DNA of 64,000 nucleotides, taken from contig OX597822.1 of NCBI GenBank assembly GCA_951406725.2, forward strand, positions 18,228,001 through 18,292,000. Direction: 5' to 3'. A program made the translations under genes and the position numbers. How positions within the stretch are numbered: the stretch's first letter is position 1; the number at the start of each line of letters is the position of its first letter. Source of the DNA: Octopus vulgaris. Taxonomy: Eukaryota. Shown one piece after another: positions 5,373 to 61,267 of this stretch. The notes beneath the pieces are model-generated. The model did not search any database. It was given only the letters and a program-made list of their open reading frames with translations, and was not told the DNA's origin.

Positions 5373-5515
5373 TTGGCGTTAGGAAGGGCATCCAGCTGTA
5401 GAAACACTGCCAGATCTGACTGGCCTGGTGCAGCCTCCTGGCTTCCCAGACCCCAGTTGAACCGTCCAACCCATGCTAGCATGGAAAGCGGACGTTAAAC
5501 GATGATGATGATGAT
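5373..5515 (+). mobile_element. RTE LINE 3' terminal fragment
   Basis: TTGGCGTTAGGAAGGGCATCCAGC...GGACGTTAAACGATGATG; inverted relative to 5582-5736. Confidence 0.85.
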
Positions 5516-5755
5516 ATATATAACATATATATATGTAGGAAAATGTTTTCAACAACACATTTTCCTATATATATATATATATCATCATCATCATCATCAT
5601 CATCATTGTTTAGTGTCCGCTTTCCATGCTAGCATGGGTTGGACAGTTCAACTGGGGTCTGGGAAGCCAGAAGGCTGCACCAGGCCCAGTTTGATCTGGC
5701 AATGTTTCTACGGCTGGATGCCTTTCCTTACGCCAACCACTCCATGAGTGTAGTG

Positions 5756-6036
5756 GGTGCTTTTTACGTGCCACCGGCACAGTTGCCAGACAGGTCTGGC
5801 AAACAGCCACGATCGAATGGTGCTTTTTATGTGCCACTGGTACGGGGTCAAGGCGAGGCTGGCAATGGCCACGAACGGATGGTGCCTTTTACATGCCACT
5901 TGCACGAGGCCAGTCGGGGCGGGTCTGGCAACGGCCACAAACGGATGGTGCTTTTTACGTGCCACCGGCACAAGGCCAGTCGGGTTGGCACTGGCAACGG
6001 CCACGTTTGGATGGTTCTCTTACGTGCCACCGGCAC
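5756..6036 (-). repeat. Five ~62-66 bp tandem units in the RTE 3'UTR (core GTGCCGGTGGCACGTAAAAAGCACC)
   Basis: Plus-strand core GGTGCTTTTTACGTGCCACCGGCAC or variants at 5756, 5819, 5881, 5947 and 6013. Confidence 0.9.
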
Positions 6037-6284
6037 TGGTAACTTCCATTGATCGATTTCGATTCTGTTTCTCACTTGCCTCAACAGGTCTTCACAAGTA
6101 GAGTTTTGTGTCCCAAGAAGAGAAGGTATGCATAAGTCGACTGGCTACATCCCGTGTAGAAGGCCACGGGTTATGGTCTCACTTGTCCTGCCGGGTCTTC
6201 TCACGCACAGCATACTTCCAGAGGTCTCGGTCTCTAGTCATTTCCTCAGTGAGACCTAAAGTTCGAAGGTCGTGCTTCACCACC

Positions 6285-7283
6285 TCATCCCAGGCCCTTC
6301 AATTCTAATCCTTGCTTCCACACCTGAAACTTCTCCTCCAGTTCTGGTAGTGACTCAGCAATTAGAGCAAGGTCATCAGCATAGAGGAGCTCCCAAAGGC
6401 ATCCTGTCTTGAACTCCTCCGTTATTGCCTGGAGGACTATGATAAATTGGAGGGGGCTGAGGACTGAGCCTTGGTGGAATCCTACTTCTACCCGGAATTC
6501 TTCACTGTACTCGTTGCCAACCCTCACCTTACTAGCAGTGTCCCTGTACATGGCTCGCACAGCTCTCACTAATCATTCATCTATCCCTAGTTTCCTCATT
6601 GACCACCAGATAAGAGATTGGGGGACCCTGTCGAAGGCTTTCTCCATGTCAACAAAAGCCAGGTACAGGGGCCTAGCTTTGGGTAGGTATTTCTCCTGCA
6701 GCTGCCTTACCAGGAATATAGCATCAGTGGTACTTTTCCCTGGCACGAACCCAAACTGCATCTCATCTAAACTAACTCTCTCTCTAATTAGTTGGGCTAT
6801 GACCCTCTCCGTAACCTTCATTACCTGATCCAACAGCTTGATACCTCTGTAATTATTTGTATCTAGGGCGTCACCTTTACCTTTGTAGCAGTTGACTATT
6901 ATGCTGCTACACCAGTCATTGGGTATGACTCCTTTGTGTATCACCTGATTAACTATATGGGTGACTAGGCTATAGCCGACACTACCAGCTATTTTGAGCA
7001 TCTCTGCAGTGATTCCTGATGGGCTTGGGGCTTTCCCTGTCTTCATGCTTCTAATTGCCTTAACTACCAAGGAACTGTCAACTCGGATAGCTGGTCCCTC
7101 TCTTGGGTCGACATTCGGCAGACTCTCTTTATCCCATTCATTCAGCAACCTTTCATAGTGGCGTCTCCAAACCTCTCTCTTTGCATCCTCATTTAGTGCA
7201 AGTGAACCATCTTCCATGCGAACACGCTTCTCTCCTACCACATCACAATTCTCTCTCACACACTGTCTTGCAACACGAAACAC
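6285..7283 (-). pseudogene. RTE reverse transcriptase, disrupted
   Basis: ORFs 6573-7283 and 6285-6569 are consecutive RT segments split by a stop; a deletion at ~6292 removes the later RT region. Confidence 0.9.
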
Positions 7284-7489
7284 CTCCAGTTTTTGGTCCT
7301 CACAGCGCAGAACATTGGCAAATTTTTTCTTATCTGCTTCCCCTCTGGCTAGATAGACTTATCTCCTAGCTTCCCCTTTGGCAGTCTGATACAATTCCCT
7401 GCAACCACCATTCTTCCAGTGCTTCCAAGTCTGTCTCTTTTCTCTAATAGCCCTGTCTACAACACTGAATGTATATATATGTATATATA

Positions 7490-7539
<50 letters not shown>

Positions 7540-7815
7540 TCAAAAAGGGGGTCGAATTAATTAATTGTTAATAAATTCGACCAAGCAGTATTCGGTATGT
7601 AAAGACCATTTACGGTATATTTGAAGTATTGATTTATAAAAATATGGTAAAGGAAAAGAATTCACTTTACCACATACCGAATTTTTCAGAAATAGCAGCC
7701 AAAAATTTGGCTATTTCTTCAACTGCAAATAAAAGTCTCCAGACAATGCATACTCAGAAAAATAACTCACATAGTATAAGGGAAAAACAATGAAAGATCA
7801 CATCCATATACGATA

Positions 7816-7877
7816 CCCGAGGACAGTCTGTTTCTGGATTTGTGGGTAAAACGCCACTTTTCCTTCATCAGCTCAGA
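7816..7877 (-). ncRNA. Type I hammerhead ribozyme motif
   Basis: TCTGAG-CTGATGA-AGGAaaaGTGG..CCACaaaTCCA-GAAAC-AGACT-GTC-CTCGGG; stem I UCUGAG/CUCGGG; GUC cleavage triplet. Confidence 0.8.
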
Positions 7878-7967
7878 GATTTCTTCTGATTTAGATTTGA
7901 AAATACTAAGAATCAAACACGGGTATGTTTGATTCTTAGTATTTTCAAATCTAAATCAGAAGAAATC

Positions 7968-8029
7968 TCTGACCTGATGAAGGAAAAGTGGCGTTTTACC
8001 CACAAATCCAGAAACAGACTGTCCTCGGG
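7968..8029 (+). ncRNA. Type I hammerhead ribozyme motif (mirror copy)
   Basis: Same motif on the other arm, with one stem I mismatch (TCTGAC). Confidence 0.75.
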
Positions 8030-8216
8030 TATCGTATATGGATGTGATCTTTCATTGTTTTTCCCTTATACCTATGTGAGTTATTTTTCTGAGTATGCAT
8101 TGTCTGGAGACTTTTATTTGCAGTTGAAGAAATAGCCAAATTTTTGGCTGCTATTTCTGAAAAGTTCGGTGTGTGGTAAAGTGAATTCTTTTCCTTTACC
8201 ATATTTTTATAAATCA

Positions 8217-8219
<3 letters not shown>

Positions 8220-8256
<37 letters not shown>

Positions 8257-8324
8257 GTATGTATATATATATATATGTATGTATATATATATATATGTAT
8301 GTATATATATATATATGTATGTAT

Positions 8325-8358
<34 letters not shown>

Positions 8359-8405
8359 GTATATATATATGTATGTATGTATGTATATATATATATATGT
8401 ATGTA

Positions 8406-8439
<34 letters not shown>

Positions 8440-8446
8440 TGTATAT
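8220..8446. repeat. Compound (TA)n/(TATG)n microsatellite
   Basis: Direct inspection. Confidence 0.95.
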
Positions 8447-8800
8447 CATCTTCATTTAGCGTCTGCTTTCCATGCTAGCATGGGTTGGACGGTTCAATTG
8501 GGGTCTGTGAAGCCAGAAGGCTGCATCAGGCCCAGTCTGATCTGGCAGTGTTTCTACGGCTGGATGCCCTTCCTAACGCCAACCACTCCATGAGTGTAGT
8601 GGATGCTTTTTACGTGCCACCTGCACAGGTGCCAGACGTAGCTGGCAAACGGCCACGGACGGATGGTGCTTTTTACGTGCCACAGGCACGAGGGCCAGGC
8701 GAGGCTGGCAACGGCCATGAACGGATGGTGCTTTTTACATGCCACCAGCACGGAGGCCAGTCGGGGCGGCGCGGGCAACGGCAACAATCAGATGGTTCAC
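8447..8800 (-). mobile_element. RTE 3'UTR fragment with three tandem units
   Basis: Homologous to 5582-5960. Confidence 0.85.
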
Positions 8801-9080: not shown

Positions 9081-9498
9081 CTATGTATGTGTGTGTGTGT
9101 GTGTGGGTGGGTGGGTGTATGTATGTTTGTATGGGTGTATATATGTATGCATGTATATATGTGTGTACATATTACATGTACATCTATATAAATATACATC
9201 TAGACATACATGTATATCTATGGAAATACATCTATACATATACAGCTATATATATATACATATATATATATATACATCCATATATATATACATGTATATA
9301 TAAATAGATGAGTGTATTTTTACCTTGTTAACAATTAACACGGAAAAATAAATAAATAGTTACCAGGGCAGCAAAAATCTCACAAGTAAAGATGTTGTAA
9401 CTCCTTGTTTATAAAGGTTGAAACTTCGTGTTTACGTTGAATATTTTGAATAATATGAATAAAAAATGGAGTTAACGCAGGTTTAAACAAGTATTTTT

Positions 9499-9584
9499 AC
9501 TTTCGACACATGTTTCGAAAATTCCACTGATACTATTCAAAAGAATAAATGGTATAAACAATGCAATCTTCTCTTCGGGAAAGT
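9499..9584 (-). ncRNA. Hammerhead motif in the PLE pseudo-LTR (CCGAAGA core variant)
   Basis: ACTTTC-CCGAAGA-GAAGATT...AATTTTC-GAAAC-ATGT-GTC-GAAAGT. Confidence 0.72.
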
Positions 9585-9787
9585 GAAAAAAACGAAACTC
9601 GTCAATACAACATTTTAGCAAAATATGATGGATTTGTATAGTGATAGACAGAATGCTATTAATATTGTTTAAAAAAAAATGTTATATGATATAACGTCAT
9701 AAGTAGCTAACAGAAAGAGTAGGGATATTAATAGTGAATGTTAAATATAAAGGAAATTAAAGTTTAAATTATATATAATGATAGAGA

Positions 9788-11700
9788 CTACTTATATGCA
9801 CTAAATGTATGTTTCTGCCAATGCTTACATCTGTATGCTCGTTCTATAACCGTGTTTAGTAGAGTATTTTTAGAAAAAATAATGAAAAATAGCTCAGAAT
9901 TGCAGAGAAGACAGAATTTCTTGCCTTTGTCATATGGTATCGAAATTGAGAGGATCAATCATTCTAAATGAAATTGTTCATTGTGGTCTTTTAAATCCCA
10001 AATCAGTTTGCTGAGACTGGTACTATTCCGTTTATTTCTATCCCTAAATGTTGAGTAATGGATAGAAATTCTTTTAGATAACTCTAACGATGTGCTTCCA
10101 ATGTAAAATCATACTTTATTACGAGTACTGATTATACACTGGTATATAGAATTTTTAATCTTAGAGTTACTTGACATAAATTTAATTCTATTGGAATTGA
10201 CTTCAGATACAATAACCTTGTTATTAATATTTCTAGAGGGTTGGATGGTATTAGCTAAATTAATGTTAGTATTAGTAAATGTATTAATATTTAACAGTTT
10301 GTTATTATGAGAAGATATAATTTGCAAGAGATTTTTTGTGTTTGAAAAACCTATCCTAACCTTATGTGAATTAATTATAGAGTAATATCTAGAATTGTTT
10401 GGAAAATTCCTAGCAATAGCTTGACGAAACAGCAGTGGGAGATTAGATTTAATTTGTCTCCCGTAAGGAATTATTAACCAAATATTTTTACTAGTATTCA
10501 TAGCGTAATTACTTCTGAAGGTGTTATATTTACTTTTAGATCGATAATAGGGGATTAAATAAGGGTTATCTGCCTTCATTCGCTCTGTATCGGTGTGTAA
10601 GTTATGTTTGTTATCAATAATTCTTTTATGACTAGAAATCTTATCTACATTATTGAATTTACAATTAGACTGAGCAGAATCAATGTAGAAATTTTTTCTG
10701 TATAACCTGCTTTGATTAAGGCAGAGTTATAGAATTCAGCGTTATTATCAACATTAGCAGATAATTTAGATAATCTAAATGAAATATTCCTAACTAAATT
10801 CTTAGTAATTGCTCCAGGATGATTACTAAATTTGCTAATGTACTTAAGATTGGTCAACGGTTTAGGATATGGGAAGTAAGAGTCACTGTGTAAATTAAGC
10901 GTAATATCTAAAAAGTTGGCCTTTGTCATATCGTCATCAAAAACGATTTTTAAGCCCATTCTACTGAAAAAATTAACTAAACTATTCTTAACTTTTTGTA
11001 CCTTTTGGTTGGAAACATTTTGGAGGTAAAGTAAACAATCATCACGATATAGACCTCCATAAATGTTAGGGAACTCTTCAGCCATTTCAAAAAGAATATA
11101 TATACAGACCAAATCAGCTATCTGTGCTGAATCAGAACTTCCCATTGGTATATTGAAACTATCTGGTGTGTCTTTACGGACCCACAACTTATCAAATTTA
11201 ATAATAGATCTTCTGGCTGCCAACACAACATTAATTTCTTCTCAGGTGAGACCAGCTTTGTTATGAGCAAGCCAAAGTACCTTATTAAGTACTATTGGAT
11301 TAATAGACGAATAAAAATTGGAGATATCAAACTGGATAAACTTAGTACTCACCTTACTGTTAATAGACCTAAACCAGTCAACTACTTCAAATGAATTAGT
11401 CCATAAACTAAGTTTTAATGTTTTGATTAAATTAGGAATATATTTATCTAGTATATTTTTACTAAGGATACCGATGTCAGAGCTAGAAGGGCAGATAAGC
11501 CTTAATGATGGGTTAGTAAAAAAATTTGGTTTGTGATCCTTCAAAATGAACCGAGGTTGCTTAGGAACAAGTGGTTCTGTCTTCATTTGTAGGTTATATT
11601 TCTCCATGATTTTCATAGCCTCAATGTTGGCTTTCTTAAGTATTCTTTTATCAGCAATTTTATACTTTTTCTGAATTTCTTTTTTAAGTAATTCCAAATA
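9788..11700 (-). pseudogene. PLE RT plus GIY-YIG endonuclease ORF, disrupted
   Basis: Reads as one frame once TGA stops at 11242, 10109 and 9959 and a frameshift near 10690 are bridged; C-terminus SIYQCII..FYIGST..STSLSKLIWDLK..FCLLCNSE..LLN..CKH. Confidence 0.88.
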
Positions 11701-11803
11701 ATATAACATTTTTTTTTAAACAATATTAATAGCGTTCTGTCTATTGCTATACAAATCCATCATTTTTTGCTAAAATGTCGTATTGACGAGTTTCGTTTTT
11801 TTC

Positions 11804-11889
11804 ACTTTCCCGAAGAGAAGATTGCCTTGTTTATACCATTTATTCTTTTGAATAGTATCAGTGGAATTTTCGAAACATGTGTCGAAAGT
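11804..11889 (+). ncRNA. Hammerhead motif in the inverted pseudo-LTR (CCGAAGA core variant)
   Basis: Same motif; 6-bp stem I ACUUUC/GAAAGU; GUC triplet. Confidence 0.72.
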
Positions 11890-11954
11890 AAAAATACTTG
11901 TTTAAACCTGCGTTAACTCCATTTTTTATTCATATATATATATATATATATATA

Positions 11955-13106
11955 TATACACTTTTTAATCCGAGGGGAGGCAATGCGAGCAGCAACTAAA
12001 AGAGCACTACAAAATCCACAGAAGGATCAAACACATACATATATTCATATATTCATTTATATCTACAGAACAGATATAAAGCCCGACGTTTAGAAATATA
12101 TAGTAATATATAAATATATAAACATCATATAAAAATATATAAATATATAAGAGAATCAATGTTGCATATATAACAACTTGAATTTGCGCTTAAAGTCGTA
12201 AAACATTTGGTATAAATTTGTTAAATTAAACATTTGGGGTAATAAAACATACAAAGACATATTAAAAAGACGAATTAAAATTCCAGAGAAAAATACATAG
12301 AAGATAAATATACAAATTTACAAAAATACATAAAAGTTCATCTACAGGCCGTTTCAGAGATGCGCCAATTAATATGAAACATATCATATATTTAAAATTG
12401 ACACTCCCCTCGTCAGGATGTTTTTTACACACAACACATGCGAAAGACCAGACATTACGTACTCCCCAAAATTCTCATAGATACTGAATGCTACTTTATA
12501 AGCATATAATTCAATCTAGCAGCCATAGTAAATGGTATGCACACAGCTCCATCTGAACTAATTCACTTCTGCACTTAATTTAATTTTAATCTTTTAATTT
12601 CTCCCATTCATGCAAAGCTACATATTCCAGTTCAAGTCCTTGATACATTTTATACTAATTGCTATTTTTTCTTTTAATTGTTATATTACAATTTAATTAC
12701 CATACTTTAGTTTTATTTTAATAACTACTTACTATATTTACTATATTTAATTCAATTGTTATTATTACCTCTAACTTTTATTGCTATTTTTATTTCTAAA
12801 TTTCTTATGGAACGTCGAGTGGATCTTATGTGTACAATATATTTTTATATGATGTTTATATATTTATATATTACTATATATTTCTAAACGTCGGGCTTTA
12901 TATCTGTTCTGTAGATATAAATGAATATATGTATGTGTTTGATCTTTCTGTGGATTTTGTAGTGTCCTTGTAGTTGCTGCTCGCATTGCCTCCCCTCGGA
13001 TTAAAAAGTGTATACAGCTCATTTGAGCACTACTATTCCAGTCTGTTATATATTTTTAGCGTTGTTGTCACTAACGATCTCAAGATATAACTTTATATTT
13101 TGTAAC
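11955..13106. mobile_element. Non-coding fold-back PLE-type insertion with a hammerhead
   Basis: 11955-12140 is inverted at 12837-13014; ~90-bp tail to 13106; TA tracts on both sides. Confidence 0.75.
12339..12420 (-). ncRNA. Type I hammerhead ribozyme motif
   Basis: CATC-CTGACGA-GGGGAGTGTCAATT...AATTGGCGCATCTCT-GAAAC-GGCCT-GTA-GATG; 14-bp stem II including G-U pairs. Confidence 0.8.
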
Positions 13107-13523
13107 ATATATATATATATATATACATCCTTATACATACAATAGAGTGATGTTTTTGTTTCACTATTAACACGTAATACTGAAATAGTGGAGAAGATAT
13201 GATATTGCTGTGGGCTCGCCCTTGGCAAAAAGTTAAACATTTTTTTTCCCATGACACTACATGGACCCTAATTAAGGCATGTCTAAAATTTGATTGAAAT
13301 TGGTTGTGTAGTTCTCAAGTTTTAGGGAATCATAGTGGAGAAGATATGATATTGCTGTGGGCTCGCCCTAGGCAAAAAGTTATAAATTATTTTTGCCAAT
13401 GACACTCCCCAGACCCTAAGTAAGGCTTGTGTAAAATTTGAATGACATTGGTTGTGTAGTGCTCAAGTTTTAAAGAAACACACAGACAGACAGACAGACA
13501 CACATTCTCAGTTTTATATATAT

Positions 13524-20844: not shown

Positions 20845-22522
20845 CAGTGAATTAAATTGTGTTTCAAATGAAAAAGGCTCCCTGATCATTGGTTGATGGT
20901 ACAGCACTGCTAATATTGGTTTAACTTATGCCAGAGATGACATTATTAGTAGACATTAAGGCCTTGGTCATCACATTATGAGCTTTATTTATTATAGATA
21001 AAACTACAAGTAAATCTAAAAGGAGAAATATAATATTAAATGACCTGAGAAAGAGGAGGAGGAGGAGGAGCTGAATTTTAAAAAGGGCAAGCTAAGTTTG
21101 TTGTAATGAAGGGTTGGCATGGAAGGAAATGTGAACTGTAGAGAATGTCTGGGGATTGTTGTTTGATATTAACAGAATCATCATCATCGTTTAACGTCCG
21201 TTTTCCATGCTAGCATGTGTTGGATGGTTCGACTGGGGTCTGGGAAGCCAGGAGACTGCACCAGGCTCCTGTCTGATCTGGCAGTGTTTCTACAGATGGA
21301 TGCCCTTCCTAACACCAACCACTCTGTGAGTGTAGTGGGTGCTTTTTACATGCCAGGGGAGGCTGGCAATGGCCACAATCGGTTGGTGCTTTTTACGTAC
21401 CATTGGCACGGAAGCCAGTCAAGGCTGCACTGGCATCGACCACATTTGGATGGTGCTTTTTATGTGCCACCAGCACAGGTATCACAACTACAATTTCCCT
21501 TTGATTTTTTGATGCTGATATACTTAACTCAATAGGTCTCCTCAAGCACAGCAGGTCACCCTACAATCCAAGGTAAGCACAGCAGGCCGTCCTGCGATCC
21601 AAGGCACTTTGGATGGGCTGGGGCTTCTATGTGAAGCTGGTGCAGGAAACAACCATGAACTCATACTATTTGTCGGGTCTTCACAGTCACAGCATATCTA
21701 GACACAAAGCCACTAATAATGAACACAAAGTGCAGATATGGCTATAGTCACAGTGATGTATGTGTGTGTGTGTTTGTGTATCTATATATCTATGTTTATG
21801 TGTATGTTTGTGTGTGTATGCACATATGCATGCACACATGAAGTTGTTTTTTCATTCCTTCACATGAGGCAGTCTGAGCTAAAAACATTGTCATTGTGCT
21901 TAAATTCCTGGTGAACTTTGTTGCATAGTTCTACAGTTTTGAAGCTTAGTGGATAAAAAAAGTCTTTCACTTGAAAACCACATCGTTGAGGTTTATGACA
22001 AGAAGGGCATCCAATTATAAAATATTGTATCCACGAAGTATCCATTTAACCTATGCCAGTATAGAAAAGATGGACATAAAATGAATAAACATATGAAAGA
22101 GCACTTCTTTTTTCTTTCTTTCACCAATTTCTAAGATTGAACTTGTAATTGTTTCTAGTGAAACTGAGAAACTAAGACAACATCTCGCAAACCAACAATC
22201 TATTGAATATTAATGGCTTTAAGTAAGATAACACTTGATTAGTTCTGCTGGACATTTTTGTATTCAGCTCAGTTTTCTCTATTGATGTGCAGCCATGAAC
22301 ATCTGCTTGCTGTAGCATTTCAGGTCATTTAATATTATATTTCTCCTTTTAGATTTACTTGTAGTTTTATCTATAATAAATAAAGCTCATAATGCGATGA
22401 CCAAGGCCATAATGTCTACTAATAATGTCATCTCTGGCATAAGTTAAACCAACATTAGAAGGCTGTACCATCAACCAGTAAGCAGGGAGCCTTTTTCAGC
22501 TTAAACACGATTTAATTCACTG
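20845..22522. repeat. Inverted duplication ~203 bp (20845-21048 vs 22320-22522)
   Basis: Direct reverse-complement match; the inner halves are nearly identical. Confidence 0.9.
21178..21700 (-). mobile_element. RTE 3'UTR fragment
   Basis: (CAT)n followed by GTTTAACGTCCG..., three repeat cores and a ..TATGCTGTG..GAAGACCCGAC ORF end. Confidence 0.82.
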
Positions 22523-23319
22523 GTTCTATTCAGTTCAGCTAATTCTAAAGACAGAATTAATAAGAGGTCAGATCAGTAATGATGCCTATCATGCTCAGTT
22601 CCTACATCACAGCAACGAGAAAGACCGATTGTTAGACACAGCCCACTCCACTATCGTTCTCTATTGAAAATTTGATAAAATGCCTGAAATGAAATGTCCA
22701 TTAACAGCTACATTTCCTGTGTAAAGAATAATCTAATTAGATAGCTTGCCACCGAACAAAGGAATCGGATTAAATTTTGTAAAACAGAGGCTGTATTGTG
22801 TAGCCGTATAACTTTGCTTCCTCCTCCATCACTAACACCATTAGCTGACATTTAGCTTGCCTAACTTAATTCAAAGAAATACAGGTTTCAGGAAAATTAC
22901 TATTGCAAGATATTTGGCAAATCTTTCAATAATTTTTGAATGCATTACAATCAGTATTTCATAATCTTAGTTACAATAAAGTTTGTATTAATAATGACTA
23001 CCAAATACAATGGGAAAATATCATGTACCATTATTTTCTAATCATTAGCAGCAGCAACATTGTATTGCCTTCATCCTCGTTACCAGCATCAATGCTACCA
23101 TTTTCATGAACATGATGTAACATTGCTCTCATTCACATTTTTGTCCAGAATACACAAGTGTTGCAGTTTCCTGTGTGGTAGCTTCACTTCCGTAGAACAA
23201 ACAAACAAACCTCTTTTCAACAAATAACTGCTTACTTATACAAGTATTTCACTCTTTATCAACAATCAGCCATCAACGACTTCTCTCCATTGTCCTTAAC
23301 CCTGGGCTGTCTTTACTGC

Positions 23320-23860
23320 TTCTTCTCTCCATTTGGATCTCTTCTTCAATCCAGTTGGGTCTCTGCTTCAATCCATGTGAATTCTTCTCTCCAATTGGAT
23401 CTCTGCTTCTCTGCACTTGGATTACTTCTTCAATCCAGTTGGGTCTCTTCTTCTCTCCAGCTGAATCTCTGCTTCTCTCCGTTTGGATCTCTTCTCTCCA
23501 AATGGATCTTTTCTTCTTGCCACTTGGATCTCTGCTTCAATCCAGTTGGATCTCTGTTTCTCTCCAGTTGGATCGCCTTTTTTCACTCGGATCTCTTCTC
23601 TCCATTTGGATCTTTTCTTCTCGCCACTTGTGACTCTGCTTCTCTCCAGTTGCATCTCTTCTCTCCCCTTGGATCTCTTCTTCTTCTTGTCAGTTGGATC
23701 TCTTCTTCAATCCACTTGCATCTCTGCTTCTCTCCATTTGGATCTCTTCTTCAATCCATTTATATCTCCTCTTCTCTCCAATTGGATCTCTTTTCTCTCC
23801 AGTTAGATCTTTTCTTCTCTGCACCTGTATCTCTGCTTCCTTCCAACTGGATCTCCCCTT
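23320..23860. repeat. Degenerate ~18-21 bp minisatellite (TCTCTGCTTCTCTCCAGTTGGA-like)
   Basis: More than 20 recurrences of TTGGATCTCT..CTTCTCTCCA variants. Confidence 0.9.
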
Positions 23861-24603
23861 CATATGTTACCCAGAGGAAAGACCTTTCTCCCCAAGGTCT
23901 TCATAATTTTGAATCATCATTGATGCTTCTCTTATTTTGATCTTTTCCAGGTAGGGTTGTTGGTCCTATGCAAGTCTATTTTTATCTTTGAACAGAGGTG
24001 GTCTATATTAGACTGCCTTCTGTCCTTTGAACTGTATCTAGCATGAGGTCCCACTTAAAGCTTATGATTCCCTGACACAGTTGTTAGGGTGACAGGCATA
24101 CAAACCCCCTTGCTACAATAAGGACTGCACTTTGTTGCAGATTATTTAATTTATAGGGTTCCAAATATCTTAGGACCTAAATTTTCAAGCACTATAACCC
24201 AGCAAGGAAACCAGGATGACCTCAAGTAATAATGAAAAAAAAAAAAAACTTACAGAATCAAATGGACAAGGAAACCTGTATGTAGTAGCCGGTCCTGCTA
24301 GAAATAGCAGCCAAATCTCTCTCATACAACTTTCTAATGGAAAGGACAAGTTAAGTAATGTTGTTGTACATCCCCTAAAAATTACAGGATGGTCATGGCT
24401 GAATTCCCTTTGATCACGAGTTTGCTTGGTTGATATGACACAGTGGTTCCCTTTTATGGCTTTCCACACTGTGTGGACCCCTTAACTATAATTGATAGGA
24501 AACCCCTGTGACATCAAATGAAGGAAAAACCATTTTAAAGAGAGAATTTATTGATATTGAGATAAAAAGAAAACTATGTAAAAATTGAATTTTCTTTAAC
24601 TCT

Positions 24604-38314: not shown

Positions 38315-39677
38315 TTCAATTCATGCCACCCCAGACACACCAGAATGAATATCCTCTTCAATCTAGCAAAAAGGATATGTACTATAGTTTCTAATGCAAA
38401 CACCAGAGACACATGACTACATGAACTAAAAGATACCCTCATCACCAGGAACTACCCACCTTCACTAATTGACATATGCATTCAACTCAACATCCAGGAA
38501 CTCAGACATCCTAAATTAAAGAAAAATTTACGAGCAAAAGCCTTACCATACATCTCCACACACAACCCTCTCAACAATGAAGCCTTCGACACCATCCTCC
38601 AAAACATAAAAAAGGACCACAGAATGAACTTAATCCTCCAAACACACACTATTATAAAAAGCAAGAGACAGCCCAAATCTATGAAAAGTCTCCTAACACA
38701 AGCTCACATATGCTCACCAACACAGAAGCCGACAGTAAAAAAATGTGGAAGACCCAATTCTGGGATATGCAATTATCTAATTGAGGGATCAGAGTTCTCC
38801 TTCAAACAGGGACAACGTTTCACAGTGAAAAGCAACTTCACATGTGCTTCGGAGAACCTGATATACACACTAACTTGCTCTGGGTGTCAAAAAAATCATT
38901 TACGTAAAAGAATGGCCCTGCACAGATCCCAGATAAAAATTCCCCAAAACAGAAAAATAACATTCAGCCAACACATAGATATTTGCACCAACAACAAAAC
39001 TCCAAGCTTCAGGATTTTTCCCCCCTACCAATTCAGGGACGATACAACCTGGAGCCAACGAATTAGTAAAGAAACTCTCTTTATTACAAAATACAGGCCC
39101 CTTCTGAACGCATCTACAACAAACGATATATCCACCTCAGCCTTAGAATAACACAAATACACATGCAAATATTACATTCCTAAGAATCCATTAAAAATCA
39201 GCCCCAATCACTGCTATAATCCATAACTTTAAATCATCCAACACCTCACTACTTTCACTCATTCATATTCTCCCTTCTCTTCTTCTTCTTCTTATTCTTC
39301 TCTTCCTCCTCTTCTTCTTCTCCCCCTTTTCCTTCCTTCTCCTTCCTAACTTTATCACTAATGCTTTTTAGTAGAACACCTATGCAAATTCTATAAACAA
39401 AACTTTCAATAGAAATATTTTCATGAATTGAACAGCAACTGCTAGCCTCCACTGACCATTCAAAATACTACAATCAAGGCACTCCCAAATTCTTCCTTCT
39501 TCTCCTCCTCCTCCTTCTTCTTTCCTACTGAGAATTCATAAGGGGGAACCCACAAGAGTAAACATGAGAGACAGAGAAAGGCAGAAACAAGGAAAATGCC
39601 ACTTATATTTGAACACTATACAAATATTCTTTTAAAAAGAACTTTTTTAATTTTTCTAAATTTAATCATTTAATTGT

Positions 39678-41851: not shown

Positions 41852-41910
<59 letters not shown>

Positions 41911-41993
41911 GGTCCCGGGTTGATTCGGGGTTAACCACAGTAAATAAGGTACTCAATACATAGCAGAGTAAACTTAATTTATTATATAGAAGG

Positions 41994-42044
41994 AGCTTCT
42001 ACAGGACTAGAACTGTTTCATTCAAGAGAAATCATCAGGAAGCT
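41994..42044 (-). ncRNA. Type I hammerhead ribozyme motif (mirror copy)
   Basis: Identical sequence on the opposite strand, overlapping at the central AGCT. Confidence 0.82.
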
Positions 42045-42091
42045 TCCTGATGATTTCTCTTGAATGAAACAGTTCTAGTCCTGTAGAAGCT
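42041..42091 (+). ncRNA. Type I hammerhead ribozyme motif
   Basis: AGCTTC-CTGATGA-TTTC(tctt)GAAT-GAAAC-AG(ttctagtc)CT-GTA-GAAGCT; 6-bp stem I, 4-bp stem III, GUA triplet. Confidence 0.82.
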
Positions 42092-42100
42092 CCTTCTATA

Positions 42101-42139
<39 letters not shown>

Positions 42140-54290: not shown

Positions 54291-54928
54291 TTAACCGTTT
54301 AGCATTTAAACCAGCTATATCTGGCCCAATTAATTCTTCCTTATGTTCAAACTGGTCATATCAGGCCTCTCACACCTACCCTACAATGACATTCTAAAAC
54401 TAAAAAGTCACTTCACTGAAATCTGAAAGCTACAAGGTAATGCATGACTGATTCAAAATAATGTGAATAAATAAGCTTTACATCATCATCATCATCATCG
54501 TTTAACGTCCGCTTTCCATGCTAGCATGGGTTGAACGATTTTGACTAAGGACTGGCAAACAAGATGGCTGCACCAGGCTTCAATCTTGATCTGACAGAGT
54601 TTCTACAGATGGATGCCCTTCCTAACGCCAACCACTCCGAGAGTGTAGTGGGTGCTTTTTACGTACCACCAGCACGGGGGCCAGTCAAGCGGTACTGGCA
54701 ACGACCTCGCTCGAATGTTTTTACACTGCCAAGTGCCAGTAAAGTGACACTGGTAACGATCACGCTTGAATGGTATCTTTTGCGTGCCACCGGCACAGAG
54801 GCCAGTTAGCCGCTCTGGCAACGATCATGCTCAGATGGTGCCTTTTAAGTGCCACTGGCATGGAAGCCTGTTAGCCACTCTGTCAGTGATCACACATGTG
54901 ACTGAATAATCTGAATGTGAAAGGGTCG
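54291..54928. mobile_element. piggyBac-like MITE interrupted by an RTE tail and nested in a SINE
   Basis: Left end TTAACCGTTTAGCATT; decayed right end GAATGTGAAAGGGT; SINE tail sequence on both flanks. Confidence 0.5.
54481..54894 (-). mobile_element. RTE 3'UTR fragment with four tandem units
   Basis: (CAT)n GTTTAACGTCCGCTTTCCATGCTAGC.. and repeat cores at ~54651, 54715, 54771 and 54837. Confidence 0.85.
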
Positions 54929-56589: not shown

Positions 56590-56812
56590 TACCCAGTGCT
56601 AGCTATGGATACGTATGAGGTGCAATGGAATAACAGGAAGATTAGCAGAGAGTAGTCTTGGTATGTGACAGATGTGCCTATACAATAAATACTAAGACTG
56701 TACAGGAATAATTGCTTATCATACATATATGTGTATGTATATATATATATATATATATATACATACACATATATGTATGATAAGCATGTATGTATATATA
56801 TGTTTATATATG

Positions 56813-56885
<73 letters not shown>

Positions 56886-56997
56886 GTATGTATGATAAGC
56901 AATTATTCCTGTACAGTCTTAGTGTTTATTGTATAGGCACATCTGTCACATACCAAGACTACTCTCTGCTAATCTTCCTGTTATTCCATTGCACCTC

Positions 56998-57000
<3 letters not shown>
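56590..57000. repeat. Inverted repeat with 114-bp arms (56614-56727 vs 56887-57000) around a microsatellite
   Basis: One mismatch seen; a third 15-nt partial copy at 56772. Confidence 0.9.
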
Positions 57001-60028: not shown

Positions 60029-60288
60029 TCTCTCTATATATAAAACTGAGAATGTGTGTCTGTCTGTCTGTCTGTCTGTCTGTGTGTTTCCCTAAAACTT
60101 GAGAACTACACAACCAATTTCATTCAAATTTTACACATGCCTTAATTAGGGTCCATGTAGTTTCATGGGCAAAAAAAATGTTCAAATTCTTGCCTAGGGC
60201 GAGCCCACAGCAACATCATATCTTCTCCACTATTTCAGTATTACATGTTAAAAGTGAAACAAAAACATCTCTCTATTGTATGTATATG

Positions 60289-60319
<31 letters not shown>

Positions 60320-61267
60320 TACAAAATATAAAGTTATATCTTGAGATCGTTAGTGACAACAGCGCTCAAAATATATAACAGACTGGAATAGTAGTGCTCA
60401 AATGAGTTGTATATACTTTTTAATCCGAGGGGAGGCAATGCGAGCAGCAACTACAAGGGCACTACAAAATCCACAGAAAGATCAAACACATACATATATT
60501 CATATATTCATTTATATCTACAGAACAGATATAAAGCCCGACGTTTAGAAATATATAGTAATATATAAATATATAAACATCATATAAAAATATATTGTAC
60601 ACGTAAGATCCTCTCGACGTTCCATAAGAAATTTAGAAATAAAAATAGCAATAAAAGTTAGAGGTAATAATAACAATTGAATTAAATATAGTAAATATAG
60701 TAAGTAGTTATTAAAATAAAACTAAAGTATGGTAATTAAATTGTAATATAACAATTAAAAGAAAAAATAGCAATTAGTATAAAATGTATCAAGGACTTGA
60801 ACTCGAATATGTGGCTTTGCATGAATGGGAGAAATTAAAAGATTAAAAATTAAATTAAGTGCAGAAGTGAATTAGTCCAGATGGAGCTGTGTGCATACCA
60901 TTTACTATGGCTGCTAGATTGAATTATATGCTTATAAAGTAGCATTCAGTATCTATGAGAATTTTGGGGAGTACGTAATGTCTGGTCTTTCGCATGTGTT
61001 GTGTGTAAAAAACATCCTGACGAGGGGAGTGTCAATTTTAAATATATGATATGTTTCATATTAATTGGCGCATCTCTGAAACGGCCCGTAGATGAACTTT
61101 TATGTATTTTTGTAAATTTGTATATTTATCTTCTATGTATTTTTCTCTGGAATTTTAATTCGTCTTTTTAATATGTCTTTGTATGTTTTATTACCCCAAA
61201 TGTTTAATTTAACAAATTTATACCAAACTAGCACTATGACCCTGCAACGCCAGGTCATAAATGGTAG
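60029..61267 (+). mobile_element. Non-autonomous Helitron carrying PLE-derived, hammerhead-containing cargo
   Basis: A|TC 5' end; 3' hairpin TATGACCCTG-CAACG-CCAGGTCATA then GTAG|T; 60029-61227 is an inverted copy of 12206-13526; the flanks rejoin as one SINE-like repeat (compare 35961 onward). Confidence 0.8.
61013..61094 (+). ncRNA. Type I hammerhead ribozyme motif
   Basis: CATC-CTGACGA-GGGGAGTGTCAATT...AATTGGCGCATCTCT-GAAAC-GGCCC-GTA-GATG. Confidence 0.8.

Follow-up and report, generated by a model that had tools for sequence, protein, structure and literature searches.

A head-to-head hairpin with hammerhead-like motifs in Octopus vulgaris DNA, a probable dead insertion product of a Penelope-like retrotransposon

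Insertions of Penelope-like retrotransposons (PLEs) typically carry an inverted, 5'-truncated copy at their 5' end, a tail at one end only and a microsatellite as target (PMC8557442), and the tail, in the accessible portions of the published descriptions, measures 30–40 nt. Work with a purified PLE protein has revealed that it cuts and extends both strands, starting at two sites that delimit the tail; the hammerhead of that system needs the protein and is dispensable for insertion in vitro, and the later steps of insertion are left unvalidated in the available text of the report (PMC11167929). Head-to-head PLE junctions with palindromes are also on record, and self-priming has been proposed for them (PMC3846280). 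Short hairpins may bear on the mechanism by which PLEs make the inverted 5' copy. In the published consensus of the minimal type I hammerhead, a C stands directly before GAAA (PMC4209133, supplement), and dual minimal hammerheads lying 100–700 bp apart on opposite strands are reported in Schistosoma (PMC4209133). Dimeric cleavage requires two motifs in sense orientation, as in tandem repeats (PMC4209133; PMC6765202). Retrozymes are tandem units of 170–400 nt (PMC7229834; 10.64898/2026.07.22.740005). The Penelope families of an octopus genome are given in PMC13282606, whose accessible part does not mention hammerheads.

The locus described here lies in an AT-rich window (the whole 64,000-nt stretch of DNA that was analysed) with many microsatellites and interspersed repeats. 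It consists of two short pieces of one repeat family, set head to head in (TA)n, and it is most probably the dead insertion product of an endonuclease-bearing PLE, in which the hammerhead-like motifs are predicted to be inactive passengers. A sequence-only reading of the window had described a hairpin of about 590 bp with arms of about 293 bp, a 6-nt loop and four differences between the arms, and the arm alignment bears this out (Table 1): the left arm has 293 nt and the right arm 294 nt, and they differ at 7872/7973, 7682/8164 and 7675/8171 and by one extra base at 8071. The whole range 7536–8219 had been taken as hairpin; this holds for the arms, from 7627 onwards, but the first 91 nt are a tail of the left copy only, unpaired with the right copy, whose arm has no tail. 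Folding, which had been suggested as a check, gives −521.3 kcal/mol for 7536–8219, far below the −141.6 ± 7.4 kcal/mol of 20 shuffles. Both outer ends of the element adjoin (TA)n repeats, and no target-site duplication is discernible at its flanks. The absence of an ORF is confirmed: 7536–8219 holds no frame of 150 aa or more, and for that reason the hairpin is not filed as an autonomous EN+ Penelope-like element. The right arm has a stop-free frame of 71 codons at 7920–8132 (+), whose left-arm counterpart is broken by the indel, and this frame has no Pfam match at E 0.1.

Table 1. Coordinates of the hairpin, its parts and flanks, and of two further head-to-head elements in the window
Feature	Position	Strand	Basis or remarks
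(TA)n-rich microsatellite, left target flank	7471..7535	.	sequence
One-sided tail of left copy, 91 nt; small hairpin 7550–7582 and 3' strand of a long stem	7536..7626	-	sequence; X7 and X10 contigs extend past with similar family sequence
Left arm: 5'-truncated repeat end (probable pLTR), sense on minus strand	7627..7919	-	arm alignment, family contigs
Left hammerhead-like motif: 6-bp stem I, core CUGAUGA from 7871, stem III ACAG-A-CUGU, predicted cleavage after C at 7822	7816..7877	-	
Loop CGGGTA, 6 nt, the right copy's first six bases	7920..7925	+	TACCCG loose ends in 4/4 runs
Right arm: inverted 5'-truncated copy, no tail	7926..8219	+	arm alignment
Right hammerhead-like motif: core from 7974, C17 at 8023, C-C mismatch at stem I closing pair (C7973)	7968..8029	+	
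(TA)n/(TATG)n microsatellite, right target flank	8220..8445	.	sequence
Decayed PLE-like element	9301–11935	-	238-bp head-to-head arms 97% alike; RT-like and YIG frames between
136-bp perfect palindrome, 68-bp arms	41908–42110		motif on each arm; 67-nt one-sided tail; TA repeats either side

Within the window, the arm has no further copy apart from matches of 34 nt or less. A LINE-type RT fragment at 6000–7470 (−; Pfam RVT_1, E 8e-11) adjoins the left TA flank. A 48-nt GT..AG stretch at 7723–7770 (−), with the donor GTGAGT and a pyrimidine-rich acceptor ending in TTGCAG, is a possible retained pLTR intron; the contigs of four sequencing runs (X1, X3, X7 and X10) contain no spliced joint there, and one joint in X1, from 7710 to 7828, does not fit this candidate.

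The features of a PLE insertion that are present at the locus are the inverted, 5'-truncated head-to-head copy, the tail at one end, the hammerhead-like motif in the repeat end and the (TA)n target. As the inverted truncated copies, the one-sided tail and the (TA)n target match the published layout, the PLE origin supposed in the earlier reading is retained as most likely. The tail of 91 nt, which exceeds the published 30–40 nt, counts against it, as does an extra A that departs from the published hammerhead consensus. The upstream continuations of the arm are visible for 30 letters each and do not reach an RT/endonuclease ORF.

These continuations come from assembled contigs of sequencing runs. 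Part of the hairpin sequence is held by 20 of the 24 runs listed, with a best share of 0.61, and the four named above were compared, as contigs only. The contigs matching 390 bases number 517 in X1, 326 in X3, 8 in X7 and 22 in X10 and spread over likeness classes from 99+ to under 90, so that the arm is a member of a repeat family; summed contig depth is not copy number. Among the loose ends listed, at least 5 contigs in X1, 11 in X3, 1 in X7 and 2 in X10 extend beyond 7919, and in all four runs these continuations start with TACCCG, the reverse complement of the loop. Since the family continues in this way, the two truncation points are staggered by 6 nt, and the loop is this stagger: the right copy starts at 7920, six bases upstream of the start of the left copy in the family sequence. 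The loop cover computed as zero in X7 and X10 derives from last-depth-bin arithmetic and is not evidence. The 30-letter upstream continuation folds into a 12-bp stem (−13.8 kcal/mol, z −4.0) or an 11-bp stem (−13.0 kcal/mol, z −3.0), and both truncation points bracket the foot of this stem, the right copy starting three bases within the 3' foot and the left copy immediately beyond that foot. A 23-nt motif from this continuation is absent from the window at up to 3 mismatches.

The same stagger bears on two rival explanations. Long inverted repeats without an ORF and with TA flanks would also be expected of a DNA transposon of the foldback or MITE type that targets TA and has the 293-bp arms as its terminal inverted repeats; the ends, however, are asymmetric, with a 91-nt tail on one side, the family contigs pass 7919 into other sequence and do not turn back, and the arms meet at a stagger of a linear family sequence, which together make such an element scarcely credible. 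An assembly or library fold-back artefact, to which the lack of a contig spanning the junction among the best 32 of 882 pieces lends some colour, is as improbable: the mirroring does not extend to the flanks, the arms differ at three of four sites by alleles that are common in the family, and a mirrored left arm would not supply the loop, itself family sequence, in that orientation. On the same three grounds, the earlier judgement that an assembly mirror is unlikely stands.

On the tail side, contigs of X7 and X10 extend 103–181 nt beyond the tail with similar sequence, among the best supported loose ends, as expected if the tail leads into a next tandem unit. Two X1 contigs end the tail at a TA repeat, and their source may be the hairpin locus or other loci. 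The family unit is at least 414 nt long (384 in the window and 30 upstream). A 50-bp hairpin part of the arm, at 7654–7705, is common to other repeats with different flanks (loose ends at 7654–7669 and 7702–7705), and it may represent a conserved structural element across subfamilies. A 20-nt pattern retrieved two loci from metagenome contigs, which match over at most 35 nt and lack the remainder of the motif, and these were taken as chance; the gapped motif pattern returned nothing from viral genome contigs or prokaryote genome contigs. The family motifs do not appear in the supplement text of PMC8557442, where long runs are cut, which makes their absence there weak; the family is accordingly assigned to no clade. 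The repeat family was not found catalogued; the hairpin is otherwise most likely an ordinary PLE-type insertion product.

It could also be argued that the family is a non-coding, hammerhead-bearing, retrozyme-like non-autonomous element moved by a PLE enzyme, the hairpin being its inverted insertion. No ORF is reached, the motif is of type I, the family is present in contigs of runs guessed to be RNA, and an origin from PLE pLTRs has been argued for animal retrozymes (10.64898/2026.07.22.740005, available part). The locus is nevertheless inverted and contains no tandem unit, the family unit exceeds the 170–400 nt reported for retrozymes, and these have canonical rather than minimal motifs, as described in the accessible portion of PMC7229834. 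This origin is accordingly regarded as unlikely, and an insertion product of an endonuclease-bearing PLE is preferred.

The motif CTGATGA..GAAAC-AGACT-GTC is found at 7871 (−) and 7974 (+). Either arm provides CUGAUGA-A, a stem II region of −7.9 kcal/mol, an extra A, GAAA, a stem III of ACAG-A-CUGU and a GUC triplet, so that the CUGANGA core with H, the GAAA and the NUH triplet of the PMC4209133 consensus are all represented (CUGAUGA-A, GAAA and GUC). The G10.1–C11.1 pair is also present, but the extra A parts C11.1 from G12, and C11.1 does not stand directly before GAAA; because of this, the motif is filed as a variant, and not as a consensus member, of the minimal type I hammerhead. The earlier reading had credited each arm with the motif and a paired stem I. 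The motif is indeed in both arms, but the full 6-bp stem I is confined to the left one (C17 at 7822), while the C-C next to the cleavage site leaves 5 stem I pairs in the right one. A strict purpose-built hammerhead descriptor matched the left motif and failed on the right one, and it matched none of 5000 arm shuffles and none of 40 window shuffles. At gathering scores, no Rfam family matched anywhere in the window. The near-palindromic stem III (ACAG-A-CTGT), pointed out previously, is real: ACAGACUGU, which comprises the palindromic stem III and loop 3, pairs with itself at 8/9 positions with −6.9 kcal/mol.

Lack of conservation among copies had been named among the conditions that would refute the earlier reading. 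No variant letter of 5% or more is listed at 7776–7919 across the four runs, from which it follows that the motif is conserved in the family and that C7973 is private to the right arm; the family carries the paired letter at 7872, the C-C mismatch being confined to the right arm. The motif part is thinly sampled at 7822–7847 in X1, where the depth is 2.6–6.9 thousand against 46–56 thousand alongside, and the dip in X1 and X3 was not counted as evidence. Cleavage is predicted at 7822, where two X1 contigs stop, but the end of a contig cannot reveal an RNA end.

The two motifs sit on opposite strands and point outward from the centre. A dimer between them, the cleavage mode put forward in the earlier reading, cannot form in cis, since one transcript contains one sense motif and the antisense of the other. 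In read-through RNA from either strand, the antisense arm is made first and the sense motif second. Whichever strand is read, long-range pairing across the motif has a predicted mean probability of 0.983, and the duplex of sense and antisense at the motif reaches −148.6 kcal/mol against −13.5 kcal/mol for the best fold of the motif alone. Each hammerhead-like motif is therefore predicted to be about 98% paired to its antisense in such RNA, i.e., locked shut, which, together with the strand geometry, speaks against dimeric cleavage between the motifs of the hairpin. A motif would be freed only by a transcript starting near the centre, and a partner in trans would then also be needed.

As a by-product, read-through of the hairpin would yield a dsRNA of 293 bp that could be edited or diced. 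The sequence-only reading went further and saw in the locus a strong candidate source of long dsRNA against its parent. Taken as a rival explanation, this would make the locus one kept by selection to supply siRNA or edited RNA with which the parent PLE is silenced. A 293-bp duplex with four differences would suit this role, and there is a precedent in D. melanogaster, where Penelope siRNAs map to the inverted regions of rearranged copies; those siRNAs, however, did not efficiently silence Penelope (PMC3681739, as far as its accessible text goes). The duplex covers the repeat end alone, and no promoter or host transcript was identified (a scan for sigma-70 promoters and terminators was set aside as inapplicable to an animal-like genome). 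None of the listed holders of the hairpin sequence is on record as RNA, which has no bearing on expression. Moreover, the 64-kb window shows the head-to-head hammerhead layout three times over, each time in another family, as a by-product of transposition would give, and the locus is thereby not singled out as a dsRNA source. Selection for such a function is very improbable, and a dead insertion product remains the preferred reading.

The other two occurrences of this layout are the elements at 9301–11935 and 41908–42110. The former has hammerhead-like motifs at 9578 (−) and 11810 (+), with the core CCGAAGA instead of CUGAAGA and a 6-bp stem I, and a one-sided tail of about 150 nt. Its RT-like frame matches Pfam RVT_1 at E 9e-4, below the cut-off, and has HTH_animal (26% and 14% of members) and RVT_1 (11%) among its Atlas neighbours; no GIY-YIG Pfam match was obtained for the YIG piece, and none of 972 candidates scored at 1e-10 as a longer homologue of the RT. 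In view of the weak RVT_1 score, the missing GIY-YIG match and the lack of homologues, its likeness to the Hydra clade rests on a by-eye comparison of motifs. The palindrome at 41908–42110 resembles the hairpin in layout and belongs to a different family; its hammerhead-like motifs have a 6-bp stem I, a GUA triplet and a 4-bp stem III with an 8-nt loop.

Several further repeats were noted in the window. A third hammerhead-bearing repeat is present in two copies 96% alike, at 12206–13332 and 60085–61227, with cores at 12416 on the minus and 61017 on the plus strand and a 54-nt stem II region, and its first copy is accompanied by a 186-bp inverted piece at 11955–12140. The inverted repeat at 56590–57000 has unique arms of about 140 bp, a TA-rich centre and extra sequence on the left only, and no hammerhead pattern was found in it. 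A stop-free frame of 244 codons at 38417–39151 (+) resembles, on inspection by eye, the linker and endonuclease portion of a further PLE and has no Pfam match. A common short repeat forms two inverted copies at 5373–5736, 86% self-complementary over 370 bp, and recurs at 8414–8796, 21177–21476 and 54481–54860. The 252-codon stop-free frame at 23182–23940 (+) runs over an imperfect tandem repeat (23316–23862) and has a low-complexity translation.

The mechanism proposed for the hairpin begins with a PLE protein that would cut AT-rich DNA. Reverse transcription would start from two sites close together, of which one is the tail end and the other lies 91 nt further in; both cDNAs would halt after some 300–380 nt at the 3' foot of the 11–12-bp template stem, and the two halted cDNAs would be joined head to head. 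Two separately primed cDNAs are slightly favoured over the fold-back of a single one. The ribozyme would work in tandem transcripts of the parent, as a dimer or assisted by protein, and not in the hairpin copy.

The differences between the arms bear on whether one template or two were copied. Three of the four are common family alleles: the extra base at 7773 accounts for 63% of depth in X1 and 74% in X3, and the alleles at 7675 and 7682 account for 43% and 25% in X1 and 44% and 69% in X3, respectively, shares into which, at 7654–7705, relatives having only that hairpin in common are mixed. With 9 common variable sites in 293, the chance of three matches is about 1e-4, which is a rough figure. 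That the differences coincide with common alleles is a hint of two RNA templates. On the other hand, the letters at 7631, 7653 and 7658 are common to both arms and missing from 90–100% of family depth in X1 and X3, and such shared rare letters appear to fit one template better than two; the three allele differences lie within 100 bp and could have arisen in a single gene-conversion tract. Thirdly, the template may have been edited, given that A7675 and A7682 sit in A-U pairs of the predicted stem. Taken together, two templates, or edited ones, come close to an even chance; fold-back followed by gene conversion is a serious contender, at somewhat under even, and any other origin of the differences is improbable.

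A more specific scheme may be put forward tentatively, at well below an even chance. The arms would have been copied from two RNA molecules, a dimeric PLE enzyme priming one cDNA per cut strand at the two start sites bounding the tail; both cDNAs would have stalled at the same stem and been joined head to head, and the templates would be marked by family alleles or by A-to-I editing of A7675 and A7682 in the 3' stem. As regards a two-primer model of PLE inversion, the literature covered, which leaves out most subscription papers, yielded the self-priming of PMC3846280.

The hairpin locus itself matters little, as it displays a known insertion pattern. What it offers is a caution, since hammerhead pairs on inverted arms are not dimers, and a way into the formation of the inverted end: short hairpin copies keep both truncation points and the alleles of both templates, so that fold-back and two-template priming could be told apart by counting all such copies in a single assembly. 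If the two-template reading were true, the way in which inverted ends form could be read off short PLE hairpins, and this record would speak against the self-priming proposal. If many such hairpins were transcribed, they would also continually supply dsRNA to the editing and small-RNA pathways.

Among described systems, compared here from the accessible portions of the sources, Pen2a of Adineta vaga (PMC3846280; scheme in PMC8557442) has the same arrangement of an inverted, 5'-truncated copy next to a direct copy, of slightly unequal lengths, with a tail at one end and an AT-rich or microsatellite target. In contrast to Pen2a, both copies of the hairpin are too short for any ORF, and their junction lacks the upstream stem instead of keeping it as a palindrome. 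Published PLE insertions differ further in their 30–40 nt tails, against 91 nt here, where a target-site duplication is not discernible either. The non-LTR retrozymes (PMC7229834) share with the locus a non-coding repeat with a type I hammerhead, whereas the hairpin is inverted and not tandem, its motif is minimal and not canonical, and its unit is longer than 400 nt. From Hydra-1_oBim, a Hydra-clade PLE in the supplement of PMC8557442, the motif differs in stems I and II and in the cleavage triplet; the (TA)n target and the build of stem III, of 4 + 1 + 4 nt (acca-a-tggt against acag-a-ctgt), are the same. Compared with the minimal type I hammerheads of metazoan PLEs (PMC4209133), the motif of the hairpin has an extra A (C11.1/G12) and, in the right copy, a C-C closing stem I, and its cleavage is a prediction. 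It has in common with them CUGAUGA followed by one extra base, a long stem II, GAAA, a near-palindromic stem III and GUC, and, like the dual opposite-strand motifs of the same study, the two cores of the hairpin lie on opposite strands, 103 nt apart.
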